The notes under the pieces were generated by a model that saw nothing but the letters and a program-made list of their open reading frames with translations, had not been told where the DNA came from and did no database searches. From assembly GCA_964016885.1 (NCBI GenBank), contig OZ024743.1, positions 258,664,001-258,728,000 on the forward strand: a stretch of DNA of 64,000 bases, in the 5' to 3' direction. Positions 1 through 48,305 of the stretch are shown here, piece by piece. This stretch comes from Eledone cirrhosa (taxonomy: Eukaryota). Positions within the stretch are counted from its first letter, which is position 1. Every line of letters starts with the position of its first letter. The position numbers were made by a program, and so were the translations under genes.

Positions 1-2
1 AC

Positions 3-182
3 ATACAAATCACTCGCATCACACAGAAAACGTACATGACACTAAAACAAAAATTCCCCAAAGACATCGGAGACTTCCGACAAGCACTCTCCAGGAGGAT
101 TTATAAGGACATCCTTCCTGAGGAGGCCACAAGCAGTGAAAAGGATGGAAAAGCCGTCCTTCCCCTACGAGAAGTAAGGTAA
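3..182 (+). CDS. C-terminal fragment of ORF1, copy A (partial)
   Basis: Manual translation IQITRITQKTYMTLKQKFPKDIGDFRQALSRRIYKDILPEE...LPLREVR* resembles the end of copy C ORF1 (KIAQKQYTNIKTKFPNAVGDFRD...RRVYSDILLEE...PPLQKVR*). Confidence 0.8.
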   Translation: MQITRITQKTYMTLKQKFPKDIGDFRQALSRRIYKDILPEEATSSEKDGKAVLPLREVR

Positions 183-216
183 GTGGTCTTTCCCATCTTT
201 TCCACTCCTTTTCAAC

Positions 217-3200
217 ATGACCTCACTCAGAATAGGCAGCATAAATGCGCGTGGCTTGGGGTCGTCATGGAAGCAGGGCCACCTGCTCAACGACCTCAGG
301 TCACTAAACATAGATGTAGTGGCCATCAGCGAGACCAGAATCTCCGAAGCACAGGCTTTCGCACCGATCTTCGGCGGCTACGATGTGTACGCATCTCCCA
401 GCCGTCCGGGATCGGGGGGAGGAGTTGCTGTGCTTTTTCGGAGAGGTTTGGATCTTGCCATACGGGCCATCTTCCTGCACCCAGAAGGTAAGTTGGTGGT
501 GCTGGACGTGACCAGCGGAGACGGCGAAGCTTTCAGGTTAGTGGCCGTCTATGCCCCGACAGGAGCAGGGCGGCCTGATTTCTTCCGGCGTCTGGAGACC
601 TTTCTTGGAACGTCCCGCTCTTTAGTGTTAGTGGGCGACTGGAACGGGATCTTAGATGCACGCTGGGATTGTGTGGGATTATTGGATAGGGAAGGAGGGT
701 GCAAGAGTCTCACCAACCTGCTCAGACGTTTTGAACTGTCTGACAGGTACCGAATGGATTTCCCGAATGTACCAATGTGGACTTGGACAAATCGCATAGG
801 GTCATCCAGATCATATCTAGATAGAGTATTTTGTAGGGAAATAGATAGGTCTAGCATAGGCTGTCCACAATTCAAGATAGTCAGCTACACGGACCACAAA
901 TTCGTGATCTGTGTGCTTGACTTAGATAGGCTTCATAGACGAGGACCCGGCTACTGGAAGTTAAACGCGTCCTTACCAGCGCGCAAGGCCTACAGAGACC
1001 GGATTTGCGAACTAGTTAAGCGGGCGTTGACGGGGGCCATCGTCAACAACAAGTGGTGGTTTGCTCTGAAAAGAGCAATTAGAATAGAGTCCATTAGGTT
1101 TAGTAAGACTTTAGCAATAGAGAAAAATAGAGCAGAGGGAGAATTAGTTAGAAAATTAGATGAGGCGCTTAGTAAAGGCATCGCGACCGACGTACTTGCG
1201 GCGAAATTGGCCCTTGACCAATTCTTCAATGCAAAGCACGAAGGCTGCGTTGTCAGAGCTAGGGTGCGTGCTCTCAGACACGAGGGGACGAAAGCCGTTC
1301 AATGGGCCCGAGTGGCGGAGGCGCGTCGTGGCAACAAAGCCACGATCCGGTCTTTGGTGGACCACGACGGGCGCATGCTACTCGATCCCGGGCAAATGTG
1401 TGAAGCTTTTCAGCGACACTTCGCTCAACTGTTCGGGGGCAGTGGCGGGCCGGATCGAGGGATGGACTTTAGTGTCTACCTCGACGGACTGCCGCGGCTT
1501 TCGGCCACTGAGGCGGAGTGTTGCGAAAAGCCGATAACAACTGCTGAAGTACGAGATGCAATGACTAGTTGCACAAGGGGTAAATCGCCTGGTTTGGATG
1601 GTCTGCCCTATGAACTTTACGTACAAATGCCAAACTTGTTCGGAGGCCTCTTGGCGGACGTCTACTGCAACTGGCAACAGAACGGGAGAATTCCCAGCTC
1701 TGTGATCCGAGGAGCGGTGGCGCTGCTGAGAAAGGATCCGAACAAGGGGGATAACATAGATAATTTTAGGCCCATAACTCTGCTAAACACAGAGTTCAAG
1801 ATTTTGGCCAAGGTGCTAGCAAAGAGGTTGGCGCTTGTCGTTGGTGGTCTGGTGGGAGAGGCACAGACATGCGCCATTCCCGACAGATCCATCCACGACA
1901 ACCTCCACCTCATGCGATACATCGTAGAGAGGGTAGCTAGGGAACCTGGCACGGGTGGGTCTTTGATCAATTTAGATCAGTCGAAAGTCTTCGATAGGGT
2001 CGACCATCGTTACCTAGCGGCAGTCCTGAGGGCGGCTGGCTTTGGGCCCGTCTTCAGAGGCTGGATCGCTGCCATGCACAGCGACATCTGCTCTGTAGTG
2101 AGAGTGAACGGTCACCTTTCGGAACCGTTCAACATCATGCGCTCGGTCCGCCAAGGATGTCCCCTCTCGTCCCTATTGTACGTATTGACTCTCGAGCCAT
2201 TACTGCACAAACTGGAGACGTTGAGGGGGGTCCCGCGCGAACTAGGATCCAGAAGATCCGTGTCAGCATATGCCGACGATGTCACCGTAGTGGTGTCGAA
2301 CGCCAAACACATCGAGGCGATCGGCACTACACTAAGAGAATACGAAGCGGTGACAGGAGCAATGATCAACCAGGAAAAGTCAGTGGGCCTGCAGCTCGGC
2401 ACCTGGAGAGGCAGGTCCATGCCGTCCAACAGCGTCGTCGGGCGCTGGACGGACGGACCGGTTAAATTGCTAGGGGTCTGGTTCGGTCCAGACCTCCAGA
2501 CGGACAAAAACTGGTACGAGGTGACGAGCAGGGTGGCTTCTCTCACCCAGAAATCGGCCGAGAGGAAGCTATCCCTGAAAGGTCGAGCGGAGGTGGCGAA
2601 TGCGTACATCGCATCCGTCATCTACTACCGCCTGACCGTCGTACCTTGTCCTAAGCCCCGCCTGACTGCGCTGGAGCGTTTGCTCTTTCGCTTCTTGTGG
2701 AAGCGACGCGCTCCGATGGTCAGGCGGTCCATCTGCTGTCAACACCCGCTACGTGGAGGGCTGGGCATGCCGTGGCTGATGATGCGCAGACACGCGCTCA
2801 GGCTACGACATCTCCACCTCTTCCTCGACGGTGATCAGGTGTGGTCGCCGTTTGCAAGACACGTTTTTCCCCAGCTCGTCTCCTTGACGGAGCTGCAGTC
2901 CTAGGTCAAGCGAAGACCGAGAGGGAGCGCTTGGAGACTGGAATGTCTTCAGGCGCTCACAGCCCTCGACCAATCGGGCAATGTGATCGGTGGAAACTCC
3001 ACCTTGGCGTTCTATAGGGGATTAGTGGAGGGGAAGAGCGACGACGTACTTGGAGAAACTCTAGGCGTCGACGAAAATCAACTAGCCAATCTCTTCGGAG
3101 GACTTTCGGGCCGGGGCCTATGGACAACTTCCAGAAATCCCTGGCCTGGCAGTGCTACCGAGGAGCTTTGCCAGTTCGGGATAAACTCTACAGGCATGGA

Positions 3201-3635
3201 GGTGCCGTCAGCCGGGCATGTCCGAGATGCGCGCAGGGCGACGAAACCGTCCTGCACGCACTCGTCCAGTGTCCGAGCATTGCTGACTTGTGGGTTTATG
3301 TCGAACACCTGCTGTCACGTGTAGGACGGATCCAACTATCAGCTGAGTCCATCGTGAGGATTGCCCCGCCCCCTTCCTTTAGCCTGGAAGGGCAGGCAGT
3401 TTTTATCTGTCTGGTGGCCATGGCGAAAGAGATAGTATGGTGGACACGTTTGAAAGGGCTGAAGACGAGCACTTACCTCTTCGGTGATGCCCTGATTAAC
3501 TTTTTCAAATTTCATTTGAAAAGGAAAATCAGGGTAGAGAGGGAAGTGCTCTCTTCCCAGCATTTTTTTGAAAGATGGGTGAGAGAAGCAAGTATGGCCC
3601 GAATGAATGGGCCTTCTCTGAGTATGTGTCTGTAA
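217..3635 (+). pseudogene. ORF2 (AP endonuclease-reverse transcriptase-zinc finger) of copy A, disrupted
   Basis: APE motifs SINARG, ISET, GDWN, YLD, TDH; RT motifs KSPGLDG, FRPITLLN, QGCPLS, YADD. TGG>TAG stop at 2902-2904 and a 1-bp frameshift near 3100 relative to copy C; remainder in ORF 3120-3635. Confidence 0.9.
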
Positions 3636-4120
3636 ATTAAAGGTGGAAAACTGGGAGAGGGCACTTGCCCTGGTGGTCAGGGCCACTGTGGTCTTTTAAT
3701 GGGCTTTCTCCACAAATGTCCCTTGGAAGTCTCCCCCCTATTGGGGAATTTTTCTTTGTTATTTTATTTCAACCTCTGTTTTATTTTACACGCAGAAATG
3801 CCCATTTGTACCGTCCTGTATTGTCCTGTACTGTCCTTAATGTCTACTTTATGTGAACCCTTGTGGTTAATAAAGAAAACATTATTATTATTATTATTAT
3901 TATTATTGACGAAAGTGGATGTACGTTTTTTGAAGCTCCGTGAGTAAGCAATTTTTGAGGATTAATTGTAGAGAATTGTTTATTTTTTGTACCGCTGAAG
4001 CATTATAAGACATTAATTTGTATCCTGTGAAGGAATAACTCATAATATTTGGGCCTTTTGGCCCAAATATTTGAACTTTATTTTGGAAAAAAAAAATAAT
4101 AATTTTTTTCTCAAAAAAAC

Positions 4121-6031
4121 ATGGCGGAGCCACGCCCCCTAGAGGCGGGTCTGCTGTCGTGCAACGGCGACTTGAGCGTTGAGAGGAGAGGTGAGGCGAG
4201 GAGCGCCACCAGCACGAATGTGAGCAGCGACAGTGCCAGCACCAACGGGCCGAGCGGCGCGGAAGGTGGTAACAGCGACAACACCAACACCAACAAGCCG
4301 AACAGCGCAGAAGGTGGTAATAGCGAGAGCACCAACAAAACGAACAGCACAGAGAGTAATAGTAGCGACAGCAGCAGCACCAACAAGGCCAACAGCACAG
4401 AAGGTAACCACGACACAGGGGAGAACAACAACAGCAATAGCAGCAGCAACACCAACAAGAACAACAACAGTGACAACACCAACAAGAACACTTTCGCTGC
4501 TGTGGCAACGGCTAAAAGGAGACCATGCTACAGCATCGACTTAACCAACAGAGAGGAAAAGTTGGCCCAGGCCTGGAAAATCATAAATCAAGAGCAGACC
4601 TGGGCAAACTTAACTGTCCCGGCAGAAGCCATTGAGGCAGTGGAAAAAAGAACGGTGCATTTCAGATGCATCTCAGTAGAGACAAAGAGGGCAGCGATAA
4701 TCGCCCAAGCTGACATAGAAGCCGCACTGAAATACATCAGAGAGGACACAGACTTCATAGAGAGGGGCAGGCAATACGGCACCGTTTCGGTGCTGTTCAA
4801 GTCTGAAGCCCTCGCTGTGAAGCATTCAATGACCCCTTGCAAAACCAGCAAGGTCATAATGTACCCCTCCCACATGGGAAAACGAATAGCACGTGTGCGC
4901 ATTCCCAGGATTCCACCAGGACTTGATATGTGGTGGCTCCTGGGTTGCGTAATCGTGGAAGGAACGGATACAGTCCCGGTAGAGGCAACGAGAACTGCCA
5001 GGGACGACTGGTCCGGGGTTGATCTGGAGATACTGCTCCAAATCAGACCCGAAAACGTAAAAACAATCCCGGACCACATCCGCCTCCAAAACGGGAGGGT
5101 GTTGCATATAATGACTGAGGGCAAAAGGCCGCATTGTTTCCTTTGTGGGGAAACGACACACTTGCGAGCCTTCTGCCCTCAACTGCCGAAAAGCGCAAGG
5201 GGTCGAAAGATTCCACTGCTGGCGACGCCGGGACAAGGACCACCAGCAACACCGTCAACAATGGAACCACCAAAATTGCACACCCAGGGGGGAAACGAGG
5301 AAAGCTCTCCCATTCCCCCTCCCCCCCAAAATACACACACGAACAAGAACATAAACACTCACTCAGACACAAACACGCTCACAGCCACAGACCCCTCATC
5401 CTCCAGCAGTGAAGATGAGGGAAAACCAAAGTCCCCCAAAATACAAAAAACAAAACACAAAAAAAAAAGAAATCCACAAAGCACAAACACCCCCACAAAA
5501 AAAAATACACACACCACCCACACAAACATTTTCCCCACAGCATCACCAACACAACCACCAAAATCCCCCAAACGCAAACAAGCTAAACAGACACAAGAAC
5601 AAATAGACACACAAACATCAGAAACTACAGACACCCCACCCACAACAAACGCAGACACAATAGAAACAACACTAACAAAGCTATCACCACCACAATCACA
5701 CGAACAAATAAAACCCGAGCAACAAAACATTAAAAACTTCGTGCTTGCCAGAAGGGCCAACAAGGAATTGATGGCCCATGTAGCACGAAGCACAAACATC
5801 GAAAAAGACGGGGAAACATTTGAAGCGAGCACATTTCGCGTACCAGATAATTTGCTTCTGATGCTAATGTCGCTCGCTTCATACAAAGAAATTCGAAAGA
5901 GCTTTCCTCGGGATGTGGGAACCCCGAACGTAAAACCCACGTCAAGGCTATTAAAGGGGTTCCCAAAAGAAACCCCACAAACCATGGAGGTCGAACCACC
6001 CGACCTTCACAAGACCCCGGAAGGTAAGTAA
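4121..6031 (+). CDS. ORF1 nucleic-acid-binding protein of copy B
   Basis: Ser/Asn-rich N-terminus, RRM-like middle (inferred), CX2CX4HX4C knuckle CFLCGETTHLRAFC, Thr/Pro/Lys-rich linker; homologous to copy C ORF1. Confidence 0.9.
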   Translation: MAEPRPLEAGLLSCNGDLSVERRGEARSATSTNVSSDSASTNGPSGAEGGNSDNTNTNKPNSAEGGNSESTNKTNSTESNSSDSSSTNKANSTEGNHDTGENNNSNSSSNTNKNNNSDNTNKNTFAAVATAKRRPCYSIDLTNREEKLAQAWKIINQEQTWANLTVPAEAIEAVEKRTVHFRCISVETKRAAIIAQADIEAALKYIREDTDFIERGRQYGTVSVLFKSEALAVKHSMTPCKTSKVIMYPSHMGKRIARVRIPRIPPGLDMWWLLGCVIVEGTDTVPVEATRTARDDWSGVDLEILLQIRPENVKTIPDHIRLQNGRVLHIMTEGKRPHCFLCGETTHLRAFCPQLPKSARGRKIPLLATPGQGPPATPSTMEPPKLHTQGGNEESSPIPPPPQNTHTNKNINTHSDTNTLTATDPSSSSSEDEGKPKSPKIQKTKHKKKRNPQSTNTPTKKNTHTTHTNIFPTASPTQPPKSPKRKQAKQTQEQIDTQTSETTDTPPTTNADTIETTLTKLSPPQSHEQIKPEQQNIKNFVLARRANKELMAHVARSTNIEKDGETFEASTFRVPDNLLLMLMSLASYKEIRKSFPRDVGTPNVKPTSRLLKGFPKETPQTMEVEPPDLHKTPEGK

Positions 6032-6060
6032 ACCTTTCCTCTCCCATTCATCCTGCCAGC

Positions 6061-9000
6061 ATGGCCATAAGAGTAGGAAGTTTAAATGTTCGTGGCCTGG
6101 GGTCGCCCTGGAAGCAAGGTCACTTGCTCAACGACCTCAGGTCACTAGGAATGGATGTAATTGCCATCAGCGAGACCAGAATTTCCGACACACGCGCACT
6201 GGCGCCGATTTTCGACGATTATCAGATCTTTGCATCTGTTAGTCGGCCGGGAATGGGAGGTGGAGTGGCTGTGCTGTTTAGGAAATGTCTGGATCTCGAG
6301 GTAAGGTCAATCTTCCGGGATCCTGACGGAAAGTTGGTGGTCCTGGACGTGAGCAATAGCGAAGGTGGTGCCTTTAGACTGGTGGCCGTCTACGCCCCTA
6401 CTGGGGCCGGTCGGCCGGACTTCTTTAGGCGCCTGGAAAACTTTCTGCTTACGTCTCGCCCTTTACTGTTAATAGGGGATTGGAATGGCATCTTAGAAGC
6501 ACGCTGGGATTGTGTGGGAGTATCTGATAGGAGCGGGGGGTGCAAAAGCCTCAAGTACCTGATCAGCCAGTTTCAACTGTCTGACAGGTACCGACTAGAT
6601 TTCCCTAATGCGCCAGTATGGACCTGGACCAATCGCATAGGGTCATCTAGATCGTACATAGATAGGATTTTCATTAGGAAAAGAGATAGAAATAGTGTAG
6701 GATGTCCACATTTTAAAACGGTTGCCTATTCAGATCACAAGCTTGTGATCTGTATGGTCGACCTAGATAAGACACGTAGGTTAGGACCTAGCTACTGGAA
6801 GCTAAACATGTCGTTTCCGGCACGTAAAGCTTACAGGGACCGGGTCAACAACTTAGTTAAGAAAAAGTTGACAGGGGGGGTTGTCAACAACAGGTGGTGG
6901 GGGGCACTCAAAAGAGAGATTAGAGCAACCTCGATAGGATTTAGCAAAGAAGTAGCAATAGAGAAAAATAGAAAGGAGGAGGGGCTGATAGCTAAGTTAG
7001 ACGAGGCTATTTGTAGTGGCATTGCAACAGACGTGCTAGCGGCGAGAATGGCACTAGACCATTTCTTCAATGCGAAACACGAAGGTTGCATTGTCAGAGC
7101 TAAGGCGCGTGCTCTGAGGAACGAGGGAACCAAAGCTGCCCGATGGGCTCGCTTTGCAGAGACGCAGCGTGGAAATAAAACCACAATTCGGTCTTTGACG
7201 GATCGAGATGGACACGAACTGAGCGATTCCAAGCAGATGTGTGAGGCCTTTCGCCAGCACTTTGCTCGATTGTTCGGGAGGATGGGTGAGTCGGAGACGG
7301 CGGCGGACTTCAGTCCCTACCTCGACGGCTTGCCACGCCTCTCGACGGCCGACGCTGAGCGCTGCGAAGAGCCGATAACATCAGCCGAAATTCAGGACGC
7401 CCTTGTCGGCTGCTCGAGTCGCAAGTCACCCGGTTTGGATGGTCTGCCCTACGAGCTTTACGTAAATATGCCAGACTTGTTCTCCGATCTCCTCGAAGCG
7501 CTCTACTGCAACTGGCAGCAGAACGGGAGCATTCCCAGTTCTGTGAGCCGTGGCGTAGTGACGCTGATAAGGAAAGACGAGAACAAGAGGGACACACTAG
7601 ATAATTTCAGGCCCATAACCCTGCTCAACACAGAGTTTAAGATTTTGGCCAAGGTGTTAGCGAAAAGGTTGGCGCTTGTCGTCAAAGATTTGGTTGGGGA
7701 GGCGCAAACTTGCGCAATCCCGACCAGGTCCATACACGACAACCTCCACCTCATGCGATACATCATAGAGAGGGTTGGGTGCAAACCTGGCTTCGGTGGG
7801 GCTCTGATCAATTTAGATCAATCGAAAGCATTCGATAGGGTCGACCATCGGTACTTGGAGGCTGTCCTCGAGGCGGCTGGCTTCGGCCCCGTCTTCAGAA
7901 GCTGGATCGCTGCAATGTACAGCGGCATCCGCTCGGTGGTCAAAGTTAATGGCCACCTCTCGGAACCGTTTCAGATCTCTCGATCGGTCCGTCAAGGGTG
8001 CCCTCTCTCCTCACTTCTGTACGTATTGACTCTTGAGCCTCTACTGCGGAAGCTGGAGTTGTTGCAGGGCATCCCGCTCGAACCGGGACGTAGAAAGGCT
8101 GCGTCCGCTTATGCGGACGACATCACCGTGATGGTGTCGGACACCTCGGAAATCGAGGTGATCCGCACCCATTTGGAGGAATATGAAAGGTTGACGGGAG
8201 CAAAACTTAACCCGGAAAAGTCGGTGGGCTTGCAGCTCGGCACCTGGAGAGGCAAGTCCATGCCGTCCAACAGCGTCGTTGGGCGCTGGACAGACGGACC
8301 GGTAAAGTTGCTCGGGGTTTGGTTCGGACCAGACCTCCAGGTGGATAAGAATTGGGACGAGGTGACGAGCAGGATAGCCAACCTCACCCAGAAATGGGCT
8401 GAGAGAAAGCTATCACTGAAAGGGCGGGCGGAGGTGGCGAACGCGTACATCGCGTCCGTCATCTACTACCGCCTGACCGTCGTGCCTTGCCCCCGTCCAC
8501 GCCTCGCCAATTTGGAACGGCTCCTTTTCAAATTTTTGTGGAGGGGACGGGTCCCGTTGGTGAGGCGGTCCATCTGCTGCCAGCACCCTCTTCGTGGAGG
8601 GCTGGGCATGCCGTGGCTAATGATGCGCAGACATGCGCTGAGGCTGCGACATCTCCAGATATTTTGCCTAAACGGTGAACAGGTGTGGTCGCCGTTTGTT
8701 AGACGGGCCTTTCCGCAGCTCATCTCTTTGACTGAGCTGCAGTCCTGGGTCAAGAAGAGACCGAGACTGGGCGACTGGCATCTGGAATGTTGCCAGGCGC
8801 TCACTGCACTCTGCAAGGTGGGCAATGCGGTCAGTGGAACTTCCACTCAAGATTTCTATAGAGGATTAGTGGAGGGCAAGTGCGATGACGTACTAGGAGA
8901 GGCTCTGGGCGTCAACGAAGTAGAACTGACCAGTATGTTCCGGAGGACTTTCGAGCCGGGGACGATGGATAACTTCCAGAAATCCCTCGCTTGGCAGTGC

Positions 9001-9480
9001 TACCGGGGGGCGCTGCCGGTTCGGGATAAACTCTACAGGCACGGAAGTGCTGTCAGACGAACCTGCCCGAGATGCGCGCAGAGCGACGAAACCGTTCTGC
9101 ACGCACTCGTCCAGTGTCCGTGCATTGCTGACTTGTGGGGTTATGTCGAACAGCTATTGTCGCGTGTAGAACGGATCCGGCTATCGTCCGAGTCCATAGT
9201 GAAGATTGACCCGCCGCCTTCTTTTGGTCAGGAAGGGCAGGCAATTTTCCTCTGCCTGGTGGCAGTAGCGAAAGAGGTTGCATGGTGGACCAGGTTGAAA
9301 GGACTGAAGACAGACACTTTTCTCTTCGGCCAATCCCTCATCAACTTCTTCAAGTTTCACTTGGAAAGGAAGGTGAGGGTGGAGAGAGAAGTGCTGCCCC
9401 CCAGTACATTTACTGAAAGGTGGGTGAATGTGGCGAGAATGGCCCGCGTGAGTGGGCCTACTCTGATCATGCGCCTGTAG
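6061..9480 (+). CDS. ORF2 polyprotein of copy B (AP endonuclease, reverse transcriptase, C-terminal CCHC finger)
   Basis: SLNVRG, ISET, GDWN, SDH endonuclease motifs; KAFDRV, QGCPLS, YADD RT motifs; GGLG; CPRCAQSDETVLHALVQC finger; uninterrupted 1139 aa. Confidence 0.96.
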   Translation: MAIRVGSLNVRGLGSPWKQGHLLNDLRSLGMDVIAISETRISDTRALAPIFDDYQIFASVSRPGMGGGVAVLFRKCLDLEVRSIFRDPDGKLVVLDVSNSEGGAFRLVAVYAPTGAGRPDFFRRLENFLLTSRPLLLIGDWNGILEARWDCVGVSDRSGGCKSLKYLISQFQLSDRYRLDFPNAPVWTWTNRIGSSRSYIDRIFIRKRDRNSVGCPHFKTVAYSDHKLVICMVDLDKTRRLGPSYWKLNMSFPARKAYRDRVNNLVKKKLTGGVVNNRWWGALKREIRATSIGFSKEVAIEKNRKEEGLIAKLDEAICSGIATDVLAARMALDHFFNAKHEGCIVRAKARALRNEGTKAARWARFAETQRGNKTTIRSLTDRDGHELSDSKQMCEAFRQHFARLFGRMGESETAADFSPYLDGLPRLSTADAERCEEPITSAEIQDALVGCSSRKSPGLDGLPYELYVNMPDLFSDLLEALYCNWQQNGSIPSSVSRGVVTLIRKDENKRDTLDNFRPITLLNTEFKILAKVLAKRLALVVKDLVGEAQTCAIPTRSIHDNLHLMRYIIERVGCKPGFGGALINLDQSKAFDRVDHRYLEAVLEAAGFGPVFRSWIAAMYSGIRSVVKVNGHLSEPFQISRSVRQGCPLSSLLYVLTLEPLLRKLELLQGIPLEPGRRKAASAYADDITVMVSDTSEIEVIRTHLEEYERLTGAKLNPEKSVGLQLGTWRGKSMPSNSVVGRWTDGPVKLLGVWFGPDLQVDKNWDEVTSRIANLTQKWAERKLSLKGRAEVANAYIASVIYYRLTVVPCPRPRLANLERLLFKFLWRGRVPLVRRSICCQHPLRGGLGMPWLMMRRHALRLRHLQIFCLNGEQVWSPFVRRAFPQLISLTELQSWVKKRPRLGDWHLECCQALTALCKVGNAVSGTSTQDFYRGLVEGKCDDVLGEALGVNEVELTSMFRRTFEPGTMDNFQKSLAWQCYRGALPVRDKLYRHGSAVRRTCPRCAQSDETVLHALVQCPCIADLWGYVEQLLSRVERIRLSSESIVKIDPPPSFGQEGQAIFLCLVAVAKEVAWWTRLKGLKTDTFLFGQSLINFFKFHLERKVRVEREVLPPSTFTERWVNVARMARVSGPTLIMRL

Positions 9481-9972
9481 GCTGGTGAATTCGAGAAGGA
9501 GAGGGGTGCCCTTCCCGGGTGCCCTAGGAGCGTCGGGTGGCTCAGGACTGGTGGGGTGCTTGAGTCAACCCTGGGTGGTGATCCCTCTTATTGGGGAACT
9601 TTCATTGTTGTATTTTTATTGTTATTTTGTTTTTGTTTTTTTGTTATTTATACTTACTCGATCTCTATGTAAACCCCCACTGTCCCTGTCTATTGTGTTG
9701 TCCCCTATATGTCGGCCCTTGTGGCCAATAAATGAAATCATTATTATTATTATTATTGAATGCCATGGTTGACGGAGGCTCGGCTCTGTAAGGTATAGTA
9801 ATTTTTAACCATTAAAACAATTGTAAATTGTTTAAAACTTGAACCAAATTGTTGATAAAGACACCCTCCTCCTCGTGAGAGGGGTCTTTCTGTCCGTTAT
9901 TTGGCCCTTCGGGGTTAAATAACCAGTTATTGGGGTTTTGTACCCAAAATTTCATTTTAAACAAAAAACAAC

Positions 9973-12086
9973 ATGGCTACGAAAAAGAAATTTCATACGT
10001 CACTCCCACTCATTCCGTCTTCTTCTTCCTCAATCATCACTACAGCAGAGAGAAGATTGTCTCTCTCCCTCCCTTCTTTAAATGTGTCTCTCTCCCTCCC
10101 TTCTCTTTCGCAAGTGACGAAAGAAAAGAAAAGTCTCGTGCAAAGCGTGCAAGGTTTCTCCACGACGACGACGACAGCGACGAAACAGGTGTGCGGGAAA
10201 TACGAAAACCCAGTTCATTCGTCTGACGTCAGGAATAATAGCAGTAGCAGCCGTAATAACAACAGCAACGGTGACAATGAAAACAACAGTAGCAGCCGCA
10301 ACAGCATCACCAGCAGCATAAACAACAACAGCATTAGCAGCAGCAACACCAACAACAACCACAGCAACAGCGGCGGAGGCAGTAGTCGTAGTACCTGCAG
10401 CAACAACAAAAGTACCAGCAGCTCTGACGACAACAACAACAGCAGAGAAAAACCAATCTCATTTGCAGGTATTGCGAAAAACTTGGAAACAATCCTCATA
10501 ACAAATGAGGAATTAGAGGAAGCGAAGAAGATAGTGACAAAGAACGGACACCGAGCAATCTGCAAGGCAGCGGAAAAATTTTTCGAAACCCAAGAGCACT
10601 GTACGGTCACGTACCGTACAGTAAGTACAAAATCCCGTAGGGTGGAAAGAGCCACAGAGGCCCAAATACAAAAAGCCTTGGGGTCTGTGTGGCAGCGGAA
10701 AACGCACATCACCCGAGGCAAAAAATATGCCACCGTAGACGTACTTTTTGCCACACCCCAGGAGGCAAAGGCCCAATCAGTAGTGACCCTAAGGAGCGAG
10801 GAAATGGTGTTGGTGCCCTCCTTCTGCGGGCAAAAAATTGTGAGGGTCAAACTGACCCACGTCCCCCCCCCCCCCCCCCCCCCCCCCGGAATGACCCCTT
10901 CTTGGCTGGCCGCGTCTGTCCTCGTCGGAATCGAGGACAAAACAACTGTACTGCAAGTACAGAAAAAAGTAAGAGAAGATTGGGTCGGCTCCTCCATTGA
11001 GATGCTAATCCAAACCAACCAGGAGTGCATCGAAGCTATCCCGGATGTGATAGACTGCGATAACGGCACTCAACTGCCCATAAGTGTTGAGGGCAAACGC
11101 CCGAAATGCTTTCGCTGTGGATCGAAGACTCACCTCAGGGCCTTCTGCAACGAGAAGACCCTGAGAAAGGAGAAAACCCCCTACTTCCGAATCCGGCTCC
11201 ACGGCTACCAGAAACAGGACAAGCGGCAACCAGGAACGATAGGTCCGTGGCACCCATACCCACTCCACGGAAATCAAAAACAGCAGCAGCAGTGGAAATA
11301 TTAACAACAACAACAGCAATACCAAATGCAGCTGCAACAGAGACTCCAGTGCAAACATCACCAACAACAACAAGTGAAAGAGTGGAGCTGGTACCCCTCC
11401 CCGACCTCACAGAATCAGACATGGAGTGTGAGGTGGGAGAGGGATGGCAAAAGGTCGCAAGAAGGCACAAACGCAGAAGCAGCGCATCGTTGCCTTTGAA
11501 AAGGGAGGAAAGGAATGAGAAAAGGGTAAAGTCTACTGCAAAGAGACCCACAGCAGCAACACCACCAACACCATCACCACCCACACCAGCACCACCATCA
11601 CCACCGGCGACAACCCCACCGCCAACAACACCTTCAACACCACCACCACAAGCACCAACATCGCAAACACAACAACAAAACACACACACCCAGCAACAAC
11701 GACAAGAAAATAGCAGAACCACACCCCACCCCCAGAAAAACAAATGCACGGCAATAAACACACACAACAAGAAACTAATGACTTACATAATTGAACACAC
11801 AGACATTTCACAACAGGACTACATAATACCAGCACCAATCAAAACGCCAACTAACATAAGACTGCTAAAAATAGCACAGAAACAATACACAAACATTAAA
11901 ACGAAATTCCCCAACGCAGTTGGTGATTTCAGGGACCTAGGAGGAACCATCAATCGAAGAGTATATTCAGACATTCTCTTAGAGGAGCCGACGACCAGTC
12001 GAAGGGACGATTCAACGGTCCCTTCACCAGACGATCAAGTGAAAAGGGATGTAAAAACCATCCCTCCTCTACAAAAAGTACGGTAA
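9973..12086 (+). pseudogene. ORF1 of copy C, split by one frameshift just after the zinc knuckle
   Basis: ORF 9973-11304 carries CFRCGSKTHLRAFC; similarity to copy B (GRKIPLLATP ~ GENPLLPNP) continues in ORF 11106-12086, placing the shift at ~11150-11175. Confidence 0.8.
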
Positions 12087-12121
12087 GTGGTCTTTCCCAT
12101 CTTTTCCACTCTATTTTAAAC

Positions 12122-15100
12122 ATGACCTCACTCAGAATAGGCAGCATAAATGCGCGTGGCTTGGGGTCGTCATGGAAGCAGGGTCACCTGCTCAACGACC
12201 TCAGGTCACTAAACATAGATGTAGTGGCCATCAGCGAGACCAGAATCTCCGAAGCACGGGCCTTCGCACCGATCTTCGGCGGCTACGATGTGTACGCATC
12301 TCCCAGCCGTCCTGGATCGGGTGGAGGAGTTGCTGTGCTTTTTCGGAGAGGTTTGGATCTCGCCATACGGGCCATCTTCCTGGACCCAGAGGGTAAGCTG
12401 GTGGTGCTAGACGTGACCAGCGGAGACCGGCAAGCTTTCAGGCTAGTGGCCGTCTATGCCCCGACAGGAGCAGGGCGGCCTGATTTCTTCCGGCGTCTGG
12501 AGACCTTTCTTGGAACGTCCCGCTCTTTAGTGTTAGTGGGCGACTGGAACGGGATCTTAGATGCACGCTGGGACTGTGTGGGATTAGCGGATACGGGTGG
12601 AGGGTGCAAGATCCTCACCAACCTGCTCAGGCGTTTTGAACTGTCTGACAGGTACCGATTGGATTTCCCGAATGTGCCAATGTGGACTTGGACAAACCGC
12701 ATAGGGTCATCCAGATCATATCTAGATAGAGTATTTTGTAGGGAAATAGATAGGTCTAGCATAGGCTGTCCACAATTCAAGATAGTCAGCTACACGGACC
12801 ACAAATTCGTGACCTGTGTGCTTGACTTAGATAGGCTTCATAGACGAGGACCCGGCTACTGGAAGCTAAACGCGTCCTTACCAGCGCGCAAGGCCTACAG
12901 AGACCGGATTAGCGAACTAGTTAAGCGGGCGTTGACGGGGGCCATCGTCAACAACAAGTGGTGGTTGGCTCTGAAAAGAGCGATTAGAATAGAATCGATT
13001 AGGTTTAGTAAGGCTTTAGCAATAGAGAAAAATAGAGCAGAGGGAGAACTAGTTAGAAAATTAGACGAGGCGCTTAGCAAAGGCATTGCGACCGACGTGC
13101 TTGCGGCGAAATTGGCCCTTGACCAATTCTTCAATGCAAAGCACGAAGGCTGCGTTGTCAGAGCTAGGGTGCGTGCTCTCAGACACGAGGGGACGAAAGC
13201 CGTTCAATGGGCCCGAGTGGCGGAGGCGCGTCGTGGCAACAAAGCCACGATCCGGTCTTTGGTGGACCACGACGGGCGCATGCTACTCGATCCCGGGCAA
13301 ATGTGTGAAGCTTTTCAGCGACACTTCGCTCAGCTGTTCGGGGGCAGCGGGGAGCCGGGTAGAGGGATGGACTTTAGTGTCTACCTCGACGGACTGCCGC
13401 GGCTCTCGGCCACTGAGGCGAAGTGTTGCGAAAAGCCGATAACAGCCGCTGAAGTAAGGGAGGCAATGACTGGCTGCACAAGGGGTAAATCGCCTGGTTT
13501 GGATGGTCTGCCCTATGAACTTTACGTACAGATGCCAGACTTGTTCGGAGGCCTCTTGGCGGACGTCTACTGCAACTGGCAACAGAACGGGAGAATTCCC
13601 AGTTCTGTGAGCCGAGGAGCGGTGGCACTGCTGAGAAAGGATCCGAACAAGGGGGATAACATAGACAATTTCCGGCCCATAACTCTGCTAAACACAGAGT
13701 TCAAGATTTTGGCCAAGGTGCTAGCAAAGAGGTTGGCGCTTGTCGTTGGTGGTCTGGTGGGAGAGGCGCAGACATGCGCCATTCCCGACAGATCCATCCA
13801 CGACAACCTCCACCTCATGCGATACATCATAGAGAGGGTAGCTAAGGAACCTGGCACGGGTGGGTCCTTGATCAATTTAGATCAGTCGAAAGCTTTCGAT
13901 AGGGTCGACCATCGTTACCTAGCGGCAGTCCTGAGGGCGGCTGGCTTTCGGCCCGTCTTCAGAGGCTGGATCGCTGCCATGCACAGCGACATCTGCTCTG
14001 TGGTGAGAGTGAACGGTCACCTGTCGGAACCGTTCAACATCATGCGCTCGGTCCGCCAAGGATGGCCCCTCTCGTCCCTCTTGTACGTATTGACTCTCGA
14101 GCCATTACTGCACAAACTGGAGACGTTGAGGGGAGTCCCGCGCGAACTAGGATGCGGAAGATCCGTGTCAGCATATGCGGACGATGTCACCGTAGTGGTG
14201 TCGAACGCCAAACACATCGAGGCGATCGGCACTACACTAAGAGAATACGAAGCGGTGACAGGAGCAATGATCAACCAGGAAAAGTCAGTGGGCCTGCAGC
14301 TCGGCACCTGGAGAGGCAGGTCCATGCCGTCCAACAGCGTCGTCGGGCGCTGGACGGACGGACCGGTTAAATTGCTAGGGGTCTGGTTCGGTCCGGACCT
14401 CCAGACGGACAAAAACTGGGACGAGGTGACGAGCAGGGTGGCTTCTCTCACCCAGAAATGGGCCGAGAGGAAGCTATCCCTGAAAGGTCGAGCGGAGGTG
14501 GCTAACGCGTACATCGCGTCTGTCATCTGCTACCGCCTGACCGTCGTACCTTGTCCTAAGCCTCGCCTGACTGCGCTGGAGCGTTTGCTCTTTCGCTTTT
14601 TGTGGAAGGGACGTGCTCCGATGGTCAGGCGGTCCATCTGTTGTCAACACCCGCTACGTGCAGGGCTGGGCATGCCGTGGCTGATGATGCGCAGGCACGC
14701 GCTCAGGCTACGACATCTCCACCTCTTCCTCGACGGTGATCAGGTGTGGTCGCCGTTTGCTAGGCGCGTATTTCCCCAGCTCGTTTCCTTGACGGAGCTG
14801 CAGCCCTGGGTCAAGCGAAGACCGAGAGGGAGCGCCTGGAGACTGGAATGTCTTCAGGCGCTCACAGCCCTCGACCAATCGGGCAATGTGATCGGTGGAA
14901 ACTCCACCTCGGCGTTCTATAGAGGATTAGTGGAGGGGAAGAGCGACGACGTACTTGGGGAAACTCTAGGCGTCGACGAAAATCAACTAGCCAATCTCTT
15001 TGGAAGAACTTTCGGGCCGGGGCCTATGGACAACTTCCAGAAATCTCTGGCCTGGCAGTGCTACCGAGGAGCCTTGCCAGTTCGGGATAAACTCTACAGG

Positions 15101-15541
15101 CATGGAGGTGCCGTCAGCCGGGCATGTCCGAGATGCGCGCAGGGCGACGAAACCGTCCTGCACGCACTCGTCCAGTGTCCGAAAATTGCTGACTTGTGGG
15201 TTTATGTCGAACACCTGCTGTCGCGTTTAGGACGGATCCGGCTATCATCTGAGTCCATCGTGAGGATTGCCCCGCCCTCCTCCTTTAGCCGGGAAGGGCA
15301 GGCAGTTTTTATCTGTCTGGTGGCCATGGCGAAAGAGATAGTATGGTGGACACGTTTGAAAGGGCTGAAGACGAGCACTTACCTCTTCGGTGATGCTCTG
15401 ATTGACTTTTTCAAATTTCATTTGAAAAGGAAAATCAGAGTAGAGAGGGAAGTGCTCTCTTCCCAGCATTTTGTTGAAAGATGGGTGAGAGAAGCAAGAA
15501 TGGCCCGAATGAATGGGCCTTCTCTGAGTATATATCTGTAA
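12122..15541 (+). CDS. ORF2 polyprotein of copy C (AP endonuclease, RT, zinc finger)
   Basis: Uninterrupted 1139 aa with YADD; a few substitutions at positions shared by A and B (QGWPLS for QGCPLS, RAGLG for RGGLG) may impair it. Confidence 0.93.
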   Translation: MTSLRIGSINARGLGSSWKQGHLLNDLRSLNIDVVAISETRISEARAFAPIFGGYDVYASPSRPGSGGGVAVLFRRGLDLAIRAIFLDPEGKLVVLDVTSGDRQAFRLVAVYAPTGAGRPDFFRRLETFLGTSRSLVLVGDWNGILDARWDCVGLADTGGGCKILTNLLRRFELSDRYRLDFPNVPMWTWTNRIGSSRSYLDRVFCREIDRSSIGCPQFKIVSYTDHKFVTCVLDLDRLHRRGPGYWKLNASLPARKAYRDRISELVKRALTGAIVNNKWWLALKRAIRIESIRFSKALAIEKNRAEGELVRKLDEALSKGIATDVLAAKLALDQFFNAKHEGCVVRARVRALRHEGTKAVQWARVAEARRGNKATIRSLVDHDGRMLLDPGQMCEAFQRHFAQLFGGSGEPGRGMDFSVYLDGLPRLSATEAKCCEKPITAAEVREAMTGCTRGKSPGLDGLPYELYVQMPDLFGGLLADVYCNWQQNGRIPSSVSRGAVALLRKDPNKGDNIDNFRPITLLNTEFKILAKVLAKRLALVVGGLVGEAQTCAIPDRSIHDNLHLMRYIIERVAKEPGTGGSLINLDQSKAFDRVDHRYLAAVLRAAGFRPVFRGWIAAMHSDICSVVRVNGHLSEPFNIMRSVRQGWPLSSLLYVLTLEPLLHKLETLRGVPRELGCGRSVSAYADDVTVVVSNAKHIEAIGTTLREYEAVTGAMINQEKSVGLQLGTWRGRSMPSNSVVGRWTDGPVKLLGVWFGPDLQTDKNWDEVTSRVASLTQKWAERKLSLKGRAEVANAYIASVICYRLTVVPCPKPRLTALERLLFRFLWKGRAPMVRRSICCQHPLRAGLGMPWLMMRRHALRLRHLHLFLDGDQVWSPFARRVFPQLVSLTELQPWVKRRPRGSAWRLECLQALTALDQSGNVIGGNSTSAFYRGLVEGKSDDVLGETLGVDENQLANLFGRTFGPGPMDNFQKSLAWQCYRGALPVRDKLYRHGGAVSRACPRCAQGDETVLHALVQCPKIADLWVYVEHLLSRLGRIRLSSESIVRIAPPSSFSREGQAVFICLVAMAKEIVWWTRLKGLKTSTYLFGDALIDFFKFHLKRKIRVEREVLSSQHFVERWVREARMARMNGPSLSIYL

Positions 15542-15800
15542 ACTAAAGGTGGAAAACTGGGAGAGGGCACTTGCCTTGGTGGTCAGGGTCATTGTGGCTT
15601 TTTACTGGGCTTTCTCCACAAATGTCCCTCCGAAGTCTCCCCCCTATTGGGGAATTTTTCATTGTTATTTTCATTGTTATTTTTGTTACATCCTCTGTTT
15701 TTGTTTTTTACACGCAGAAATGCCCATTTGTACCGTCCTGCATTGTCCTGCACTGTCCTTAATGTCTACTTTATGTAAACCCTTGTGGTTAATAAAGAAA

Positions 15801-15859
<59 letters not shown>

Positions 15860-16086
15860 GAAGGTGGTGGATTGGCAGTATCAGAAGGGTGGCAGACAAC
15901 ATGCTATGTAGCATAAGTTATGGCCCTTTATGTTCTGAGTTCAAATCCCGCCGAGGTTAGCTTTGCCTTTCAGGCTTACGGGCAATAAAATAAATCACCA
16001 GTAATTCACTGGGGTCAATTTGATCAACTTTCCCCTCTCCCAAAATTGCTGGCCTTGTGCCTATAGTGGAAACCATTATTATTATT
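15860..16086 (+). mobile_element. tRNA-derived SINE with (ATT)n tail (Nin/Deu-like central domain, tentative)
   Basis: A-box-like TGGCAG, B-box GAGTTCAAATCC, core GCCTTTCA...AAAATAAA..ACCAG, tail GGCCTTGTGCC..GAAACC(ATT)4; further copies at 57414 (+), ~48960-49127 (-), ~50210-50340 (-). Confidence 0.8.
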
Positions 16087-47467: not shown

Positions 47468-48095
47468 CCTCAGCTACCCTCACTCACATGGTAGTCACTC
47501 AGCTCTCCTCACTCACACGGTAGTCAGTCAGCTACCCTCACCCACATGTTAGTCACTCAGCTACCCTCACTCACATGGTAGTCACTCAGCTATCCTCACT
47601 CACTTGGTAGTCACTCAGCTACCCTCACTCACATGGTCATCACTCAGCTACCCTCACTACATGGTAGTCACTCAGCTCTTGTCACTCCCAAGGTAGTCAC
47701 TCAGCTACCCTCACTCACATGGTAGTCACTCAGCTGCCCTCACTCACTTAGTAGTTACTCAGCTACCCTCACCCACATGGTAGTCACTCAGCTACCCTCA
47801 CTACATGGTAGTCACTCAGCTCCTGTCACTCACAAGGTAGTCACTCAGCTACCCTCACTCACATGGTAGTCACTCAGCTGCCCTTACTCACTTGGTAGTC
47901 ACTCAGCTACCCTCACACACATGGTAGTCACTCAGCTACCCTCACCCACATGGTTGTCACTTAGCTACCCTCACTCCCATGGTAGTCACTCAGCTGCCGT
48001 CACTCACTTGGTAGTCACTCAGCTACCCTCACTCACTTGGTAGTCACTTAGCGACCCTCACTCACTTGGCAGTCACTCAGCTTTCCTCACTTGTT
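47468..48095. repeat. 29-bp minisatellite, ~21 copies, consensus GGTAGTCACTCAGCTACCCTCACTCACAT
   Basis: GGTAG starts at 47490 and 47519 (period 29); degenerates toward 48150. Confidence 0.95.
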
Positions 48096-48305
48096 TGCTA
48101 ATTACTCAGTTACTCTCACTCAGTTCCTAGCCACTCATCTACCATCACTCACCTAATACATGTATATGGAAATGATGATGATGATATATATATATATAAA
48201 TGAAATATATATATATAAACAGTCTATTTTTAGAATCATTGAGCCGATGGGAAGTTTGTGAATTTGAAAGAAGCATACACTCCCACATACAGTATATATA
48301 TTATA

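Follow-up and report, generated by a model that had tools for sequence, protein, structure and literature searches.

LINE (long interspersed nuclear element) families of the Tx1 type that insert specifically into microsatellites are known for TC, TTC, TTCC and TTTC repeats, among them Kibi, Koshi and the crocodilian (TTCC)n and (TTTC)n families, all with an APE endonuclease (PMC4494074, PMC3812793). The route by which APE-type LINEs acquire microsatellite targets is described there as poorly understood (PMC3812793). Tx1-Mar has a partner short interspersed nuclear element (SINE), SINEU-3, which has the specificity of its LINE (PMC4494074). A Tx1-like LINE family, likewise with a partner SINE, is described here from Eledone cirrhosa, where a window of 64,000 nucleotides (GCA_964016885.1, contig OZ024743.1, positions 258,664,001 to 258,728,000, forward strand) opens with a head-to-tail chain of three LINEs, A, B and C, and one SINE (window 1..16086), joined by (ATT)n tracts. 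Targeting of ATT by this LINE is real and genome-wide, and is a new target for a known type of microsatellite-specific Tx1 family. Judged from sequence, the LINE probably enters (ATT)n, duplicates part of the tract and aims by AUU pairing at both ends of its RNA, so building the stack. Unlike Kibi, Koshi and the crocodilian families, it combines a target made of A and T only with a cephalopod lineage, thousands of young full-length copies and a looser SINE. No report of an ATT-specific Tx1 element or of this SINE's signature was found in the literature, in which subscription papers were poorly covered and the supplement to PMC4494074 may list more targets.

Insertion into (ATT)n across the genome

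An exact 22-mer of the C head has 1,655 matches in the genome, 1,596 of which (96%) lie directly behind (ATT)4 or more and in phase, and the reversed-pattern control for (ATT)4 plus C head gives 0 matches, so the targeting is not due to chance. The share of flanks of one sequence type exceeds the threshold of >20% used to define target-specific Tx1 elements (PMC4494074). The exact B head has 324 matches. An ATT tract stands in front of all 30 best-scoring C copies and all 30 best-scoring B copies; among the first 30 heads of each in genome order, perfect upstream tracts of 4–27 units precede 30/30 C heads, and every B head follows ATT, with at least four units at 29/30 (medians 8.5 units for C and 7.5 for B). 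The (ATT)n targeting proposed in a sequence-only reading of the window is thus borne out by flanks that are anything but random.

The joint reads exactly ATT then G at 64/64 B heads and 84/87 C heads, many of them located by patterns containing that G. Full-length LINEs have seamless 5' joints, SINE joints are ragged, and truncated LINE copies show microhomology or extra bases. Every head type starts with an invariant G, and no doubling of the G was seen in B or C (many, again, found by G-containing patterns); the G at the C/SINE junction belongs to the SINE, a likely RNA polymerase III (Pol III) transcript, which would carry no cap. A junction G copied from a cap, as had been suggested, is disfavoured by the invariant G and the seamless joints; the contrast between LINE and SINE joints points instead to pairing of RNA and target.

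Young truncated copies (at least 94% identity) lie in tracts in 7/11 cases, scored by eye with internal deletions set aside. Supply of the 5' tract entirely by the RNA is disfavoured, young truncated copies too being mostly inside tracts. An unusually large proportion of the family's insertions seem to be full length (324 heads vs 1,310 3' motifs, the latter including older subfamilies). Among older B-like copies (L216–L244), internal deletions are commoner than true 5' truncation.

Organisation, integrity and age of the stack

With the neighbouring assembly sequence included, the stack has five members in the order SINE–A–B–C–SINE and a total length of ~18.3 kb. The gapless head-to-tail order reported from the sequence alone was read back at all three (ATT)n/GA junctions, (ATT)9 then GAC at 3907/3908, (ATT)6 then GAA at 9757/9758 and (ATT)19 then GAA at 15859/15860, with zero DNA between neighbouring elements, as were the near-equal 5' untranslated regions (UTRs) of B and C (213 and 215 nt, from the ATGs of open reading frame (ORF) 1 at 4121 and 9973). 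Extended upstream, as that reading had proposed, the chain continues: a SINE lies ~2.2 kb before base 1, followed by (ATT)17 and the 5' end of A, which is full length, begins 2,019 bases upstream of the window and has a third type of 5' UTR. No further family copies were found within 50 kb upstream of the chain. The features in the window, all on the forward strand, are as follows.

1..3880, +, element A, 3' two thirds; damaged, with ORF2 at 217–3635 containing a stop and a frameshift
3881..3907, +, (ATT)9 tract at the A/B junction; read as target plus duplicated target
3908..9739, +, element B; full length, intact, youngest; last base a C just past AATAAA plus 7 nt
4121..6031, +, B ORF1, 636 aa, with CCHC knuckle; look-alikes are CCHC/RNA-binding clusters
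6061..9480, +, B ORF2, 1139 aa; APE endonuclease, reverse transcriptase (RT) and zf-RVT domains
9714..9726, +, B 3' hairpin; 4-bp stem, loop CUUGU
9740..9757, +, (ATT)6 tract at the B/C junction; length compatible with a 15–18 bp duplication
9758..15802, +, element C, full length; ORF1 9973–12086 frameshifted at the C-run 10863–10887, ORF2 12122–15541 open
15778..15790, +, C 3' hairpin; loop as in B, stem changes relative to B compensatory
15803..15859, +, (ATT)19 tract at the C/SINE junction
15860..16074, +, partner SINE; motifs resembling Pol III A and B boxes, judged by eye, and a 3' hairpin 16051–16061 with the loop of B and C
16075..16086, +, (ATT)4 tract closing the terminal SINE

A and C are 95.5% identical over 3,792 bp but unlike over the first 134 window bases, at the end of ORF1, and B is only 76% identical to C; the three are as distinct as had been noted, and a simple tandem duplication of A-B-C is excluded by this divergence. 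Both ORFs of B are open; A has a stop at 2902–2904, a frameshift further on and a fragmented ORF1. The C-run that shifts ORF1 of C has 25 C, where 34/37 other copies examined carry 7, and in its ORF2 W replaces C in the QG-x-P motif of the RT. Departures from the column majority number 4 sites in window B and 41 in window C, consistent with B having arrived last; B, the sole intact copy, flanked by damaged neighbours, likely inserted between A and C, as first proposed. Long or complete ORFs in most of the 55 copies read whole indicate that the B and C subfamilies are both young, and C is no relic of a dead family, intact ORFs being present in most C copies examined.

In A, B and C a GTAAGT, perfectly splice-donor-like, overlaps the stop codon of ORF1 (178–184, 6025–6031 and 12083–12089), ~30–35 nt before the ORF2 ATG. 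Some 25–45 nt into the 5' ends of the three elements, a GCTCY motif is followed by a splice-donor-like GTAAG/GTGAG (window 3935–3948 and 9783–9793; L061), an arrangement also present in the 5' ends of an unrelated restriction-like LINE (L038, L059) and possibly a host promoter or splice signal. A fourth type of 5' end, starting GGTC, stands after family tracts downstream of L360, L374, L352, L345 and L425.

Origin of the downstream tract

Two B copies bear most directly on the nature of the ATT that follows each element. In L362 an 18-bp tract, GTT interruption included, is repeated on both sides, and in L361 15 bp are repeated with one mismatch, GTT following immediately on the element's last base; neither has element-derived ATT. 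This repetition of interrupted tracts suggests that most of the downstream tract is a copy of the target. C would add further units beyond the duplication, its tails (median 13 units, n=35) exceeding the tracts upstream (median 8.5). At a repeated host site, empty copies hold 3–8 ATT units (21 sites, not counting 9 that belong to a variant with longer tracts) and filled copies 12, 14 and 16 units in total (3 sites with both flanks). The proposal of a fresh (ATT)n with each insertion stands as a net gain of tract, but not as a tail owned by the element. For repeat curation, consensus models ending in (ATT)n would include target DNA.

The sequence-only reading had joined such an element-owned tail to a cap-derived G and to arrays resembling those of HeT-A/TART. 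HeT-A and TART form head-to-tail arrays of non-LTR (long terminal repeat) elements. ATT does follow every copy, C tails do exceed the upstream tracts and all four head types start with G; against this combination stand L361 and L362, the SINE 'tails', which are duplications, and the interstitial position of the window, at 258.7 Mb of a 378.8-Mb scaffold (3.0-Gb genome), with heads distributed along scaffold arms. We regard it as improbable. The stacks are interstitial and dispersed genome-wide rather than confined to chromosome ends, and they differ from HeT-A/TART in being endonuclease-made, with duplications and no sign of a chromosome-end function.

Young B copies (L108, L137, L145, L151 and L152) often have 2–6 ATT followed by an AGT run, perhaps from a compound target or from priming slippage. 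Tandem units at L011/L012, L023–L025 and L177/L178 consist of the element plus 120–900 bp of flank, bounded by ATT, and may reflect duplication or 3' read-through transduction.

The partner SINE

The SINE motif has 55,232 exact matches, a count inflated by arrays of the 45-bp head, and neither ARAGORN nor Rfam gave a match to the SINE. A hairpin with a CUUGU loop just before the 3' end is common to the SINE, B and C, the stems of B and C differing by compensatory changes; a common 3' end with a conserved stem-loop is a feature of stringent SINE/LINE pairs. Duplications flank 42/69 SINE copies (shuffled pairings, 4–11); they measure 12–19 bp (median 16–17 bp), start with ATTAT in 35/42 and are preceded by T/C in 26/32. 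At loci not chosen through ATT, 20/22 SINE copies have a duplication and only 1/22 lies behind (ATT)4, so that the supposed confinement of the SINE to (ATT)n gives way to ordinary duplications starting ATTAT, and SINE heads that do lie behind (ATT)4 are attached by 16 different linkers among 18 cases. Such duplications outside tracts suggest that the machinery moving the SINE needs ATTAT alone. In this the Eledone SINE is looser than SINEU-3, although SINEs stack here too, by reuse of a duplication (L386); tandem SINEU-3 insertions sandwich a duplication (PMC4494074).

The first 45 bp of the SINE also occur in tandem arrays of up to at least 25 units, right before a complete SINE (L391–L393, L397–L405 and many others).

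Growth and placement of stacks

Of 67,123 (ATT)5 tracts with A, C or G before them, 10,705 (16%) belong to family 3' ends, an upper value for the true family share, T-preceded tracts being uncounted. A family end stands in front of 12/30 C heads and 12/30 B heads (for B, 11 by script and one variant by eye), or 24/60 (~40%) vs ≤16% expected (p ~7e-6, uncorrected for clustering), and in front of 15/51 heads when same-subfamily tandems are removed (p 0.011), in keeping with the enrichment of same-family neighbours that had been anticipated. Same-subfamily neighbours were counted by hand at 17/100 B heads and 12/100 C heads vs 0.5% and 2.5% expected.

Unequal crossing-over between flanking tracts, or misassembly, might be thought to generate most stacks. 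A 10-unit head-to-tail array of 5.8-kb B elements (G000:C1:423.36–423.42 Mb, L246–L252) shares 24 array-private substitutions among neighbours (9 units aligned), as mosaic common variants, and has a constant (ATT)5 joint; here a LINE is becoming a macrosatellite. In a 4-unit C array, 8 private substitutions are common, and three further pairs have 2–4. The window neighbours, by contrast, belong to different subfamilies, and their divergence excludes crossing-over for A-B-C; 10/28 adjacent same-subfamily pairs (e.g. L114, L068, L070) lack any common private change, and the one flank-to-head junction tested is present in short-read contigs. As the main source of stacks, this explanation is highly improbable. 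Across the 28 adjacent pairs aligned, at least two private substitutions are common to 13 (eight of them in the one 10-unit array), one to 5 and none to 10, compared with at least two in 9/675 dispersed pairs; duplication and independent insertion both occur. No joint skipping the element turned up in three contig runs from a single sample or in three runs of reduced-representation data, in which repeats were masked.

At least 10,705 ATT tracts in the genome are of the family's making, as are several megabases of young, full-length sequence. Other elements share the tracts. Restriction-like-endonuclease LINEs of at least two families lie in them on the opposite strand, tail-to-tail or head-to-head (downstream flanks of L066, L072, L074, L078, L080–L082, L089 and L118; upstream flanks of L004, L018, L038 and L059); at the 9 loci read, these reverse-strand LINEs end in (AAT)n and their ORFs combine a restriction-like motif with a CCHC knuckle, motifs from which we take the elements to be of R4/Dong type. 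The ATT target is thus common to the Tx1-like LINE and an unrelated LINE on the other strand. An RTE-like element (label by eye; L266–L295) contains, inside its 3' UTR, an ATT island (1,297 exact matches) that is used as a landing site, and another repeat end provides 7/30 sampled ATT tracts.

Proposed mechanism of target choice

Insertion into (ATT)n with duplication of the tract would leave a reusable target on either side of the element. The APE domain would make its bottom-strand nick at ATAAT/purine, a pyrimidine/purine step like that of L1. A transcript running past the element end into the duplicated tract and cleaved near AATAAA would carry (AUU)n, which could pair with the freed primer strand; pairing of primer and RNA has a precedent in L1 (PMC3649969). 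If the transcript also began inside the upstream tract, the end of the cDNA could anneal in register to the top strand. R2 RNA that retains upstream target bases gives uniform 5' joints (PMC3774820), and by analogy the LINE RNA likely starts within the upstream tract. The SINE RNA, with a short 3' AUU match only and none at its 5' end, would insert at any ATTAT with ragged 5' joints. R2, whose RNA is cleaved upstream by a ribozyme (PMC3774820), would resemble the Eledone LINE to this extent, and differs in its class of endonuclease; no ribozyme was found at the LINE 5' ends by Rfam, or by a crude HDV-like descriptor that had no working positive control. Human L1/Alu likewise make duplications of ~15 bp that begin with a match to the end of the RNA, whereas the Eledone LINE has no poly(A) in its DNA and shares a stringent 3' hairpin with its SINE.

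The boldest form of this proposal, put forward tentatively, is a target choice that is guided by RNA and inherited by the element itself, in which the protein cuts loosely at ATTAT and the strict (ATT)n aim comes from the AUU repeats of the landing site at both RNA ends. The SINE would then be a built-in control exposing the bare preference of the protein, and transcripts reading through into an adjacent head would add to the tendency to insert next to the same subfamily.

Somewhat less probable still, to our judgement, is an aim set by the endonuclease alone, with the APE domains of B and C recognising long (ATT)n duplex and cutting both strands in phase, and the SINE mobilised by a relative that is older and more relaxed. 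Tx1 targets are usually explained by the specificity of the endonuclease (PMC4494074). The sole top-strand T/A step in (ATT)n would yield ATT ends, older B-like copies (83–91%) often have short or non-ATT ends, and one truncated copy of 86% (L034) has a SINE-like 17-bp duplication. The ragged or microhomology joints of truncated LINEs and SINEs within tracts argue, however, that the second cut is not generally phase-locked, and the loop of the APE domain that we take to set specificity aligns to human L1 without an insertion.

Several points weigh against insertion with tract duplication and AUU pairing. Among full-length copies, duplication of an interruption is certain only in L361 and L362; an interruption is unrepeated in B copies L114 and L365 and C copies L374, L075, L410, L422, L424, L426 and L432. 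In the 16 pairings read for C heads with interrupted tracts (11 matches plus 5 by list comparison), 9 lacked a tail where expected, 5 had the interruption unrepeated, 1 had it repeated in a tandem pair, which is ambiguous, and 1 was read only as far as the next tract. The C non-repeats would fit later mutation, 3.6% being interrupted, approximately the expectation of 0.5% divergence over 12 bp. The excess length of C tails falls outside simple duplication, as do several B and C copies with just 2–3 ATT downstream, below a 15-bp duplication. A relative of lower specificity may mobilise the SINE, in which case the contrast between LINE and SINE would no longer hold, and the excess of same-subfamily neighbours is only partly accounted for by duplication. 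Because the strict LINE and the loose SINE have a 3' hairpin in common, and thousands of copies are dated, the shares of endonuclease and RNA pairing are open to direct test.

Relationships of the LINE

The elements have the features of the L1 superfamily, namely two ORFs and an ORF2 with an APE endonuclease, an RT and a C-terminal zinc knuckle, and the best solved-structure match of ORF2 is human L1 ORF2p (197 bits). ORF1 resembles that of the Tx1 clade, in which RNA-binding domains accompany a CCHC knuckle: the knuckle is seen in the sequence and the feature look-alikes of ORF1 score 0.89–0.92; there is no Pfam match. The nearest named proteins are cephalopod (Argonauta hians, 69% over the RT region; cuttlefish, 53%), in line with an octopod host.

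Among metagenome relatives (80 kept of 362), 12 loci were scanned with Rfam, and U2 small nuclear RNA (snRNA), the hallmark of Keno-type Tx1 elements, was present at five, loci that had been found using this family's own alignment. The five, at ~30% identity, score 411–472 bits against B ORF2, compared with 197 bits for human L1. A quick tree was built from 93 RT rows, none of them a named Tx1 or L1 sequence. In it, B, C and the Argonauta protein group together at support 99, and a 17-row clade containing them is sister to the clade with all five U2 loci; this join has support 91, short of the tool's star level. The Tx1-like identity first proposed is likely, though not proven; the family appears closest to U2-inserted, Keno-like elements, from which it differs in target. 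An ATT tract occurs at 1/80 metagenome loci of these distant relatives. Metagenome contigs L442, L448, L449, L451 and L454 carry the Keno-like elements with U2 snRNA beside or inside them, three with a second U2-like piece before ORF2.

Dong uses the same microsatellite, (TAA)n (PMC3812793, PMC3774820), with a restriction-like endonuclease after the RT, in place of the N-terminal APE domain of the Eledone LINE; in Eledone, Dong-similar elements occupy the tracts of that LINE on the other strand. In Octopus vulgaris, Dong-R4 and L1-Tx1 elements have both been recently active (PMC13282606, a study whose main text never uses the word 'target').

Other features of the window

The large satellite near the chain, to which the stacking had been tied, has no sequence in common with it. 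This 36-bp satellite (~661 units, 23670–47446) is followed by a 29-bp array at 47469–48152, the long stop-free frames in this region being a by-product.

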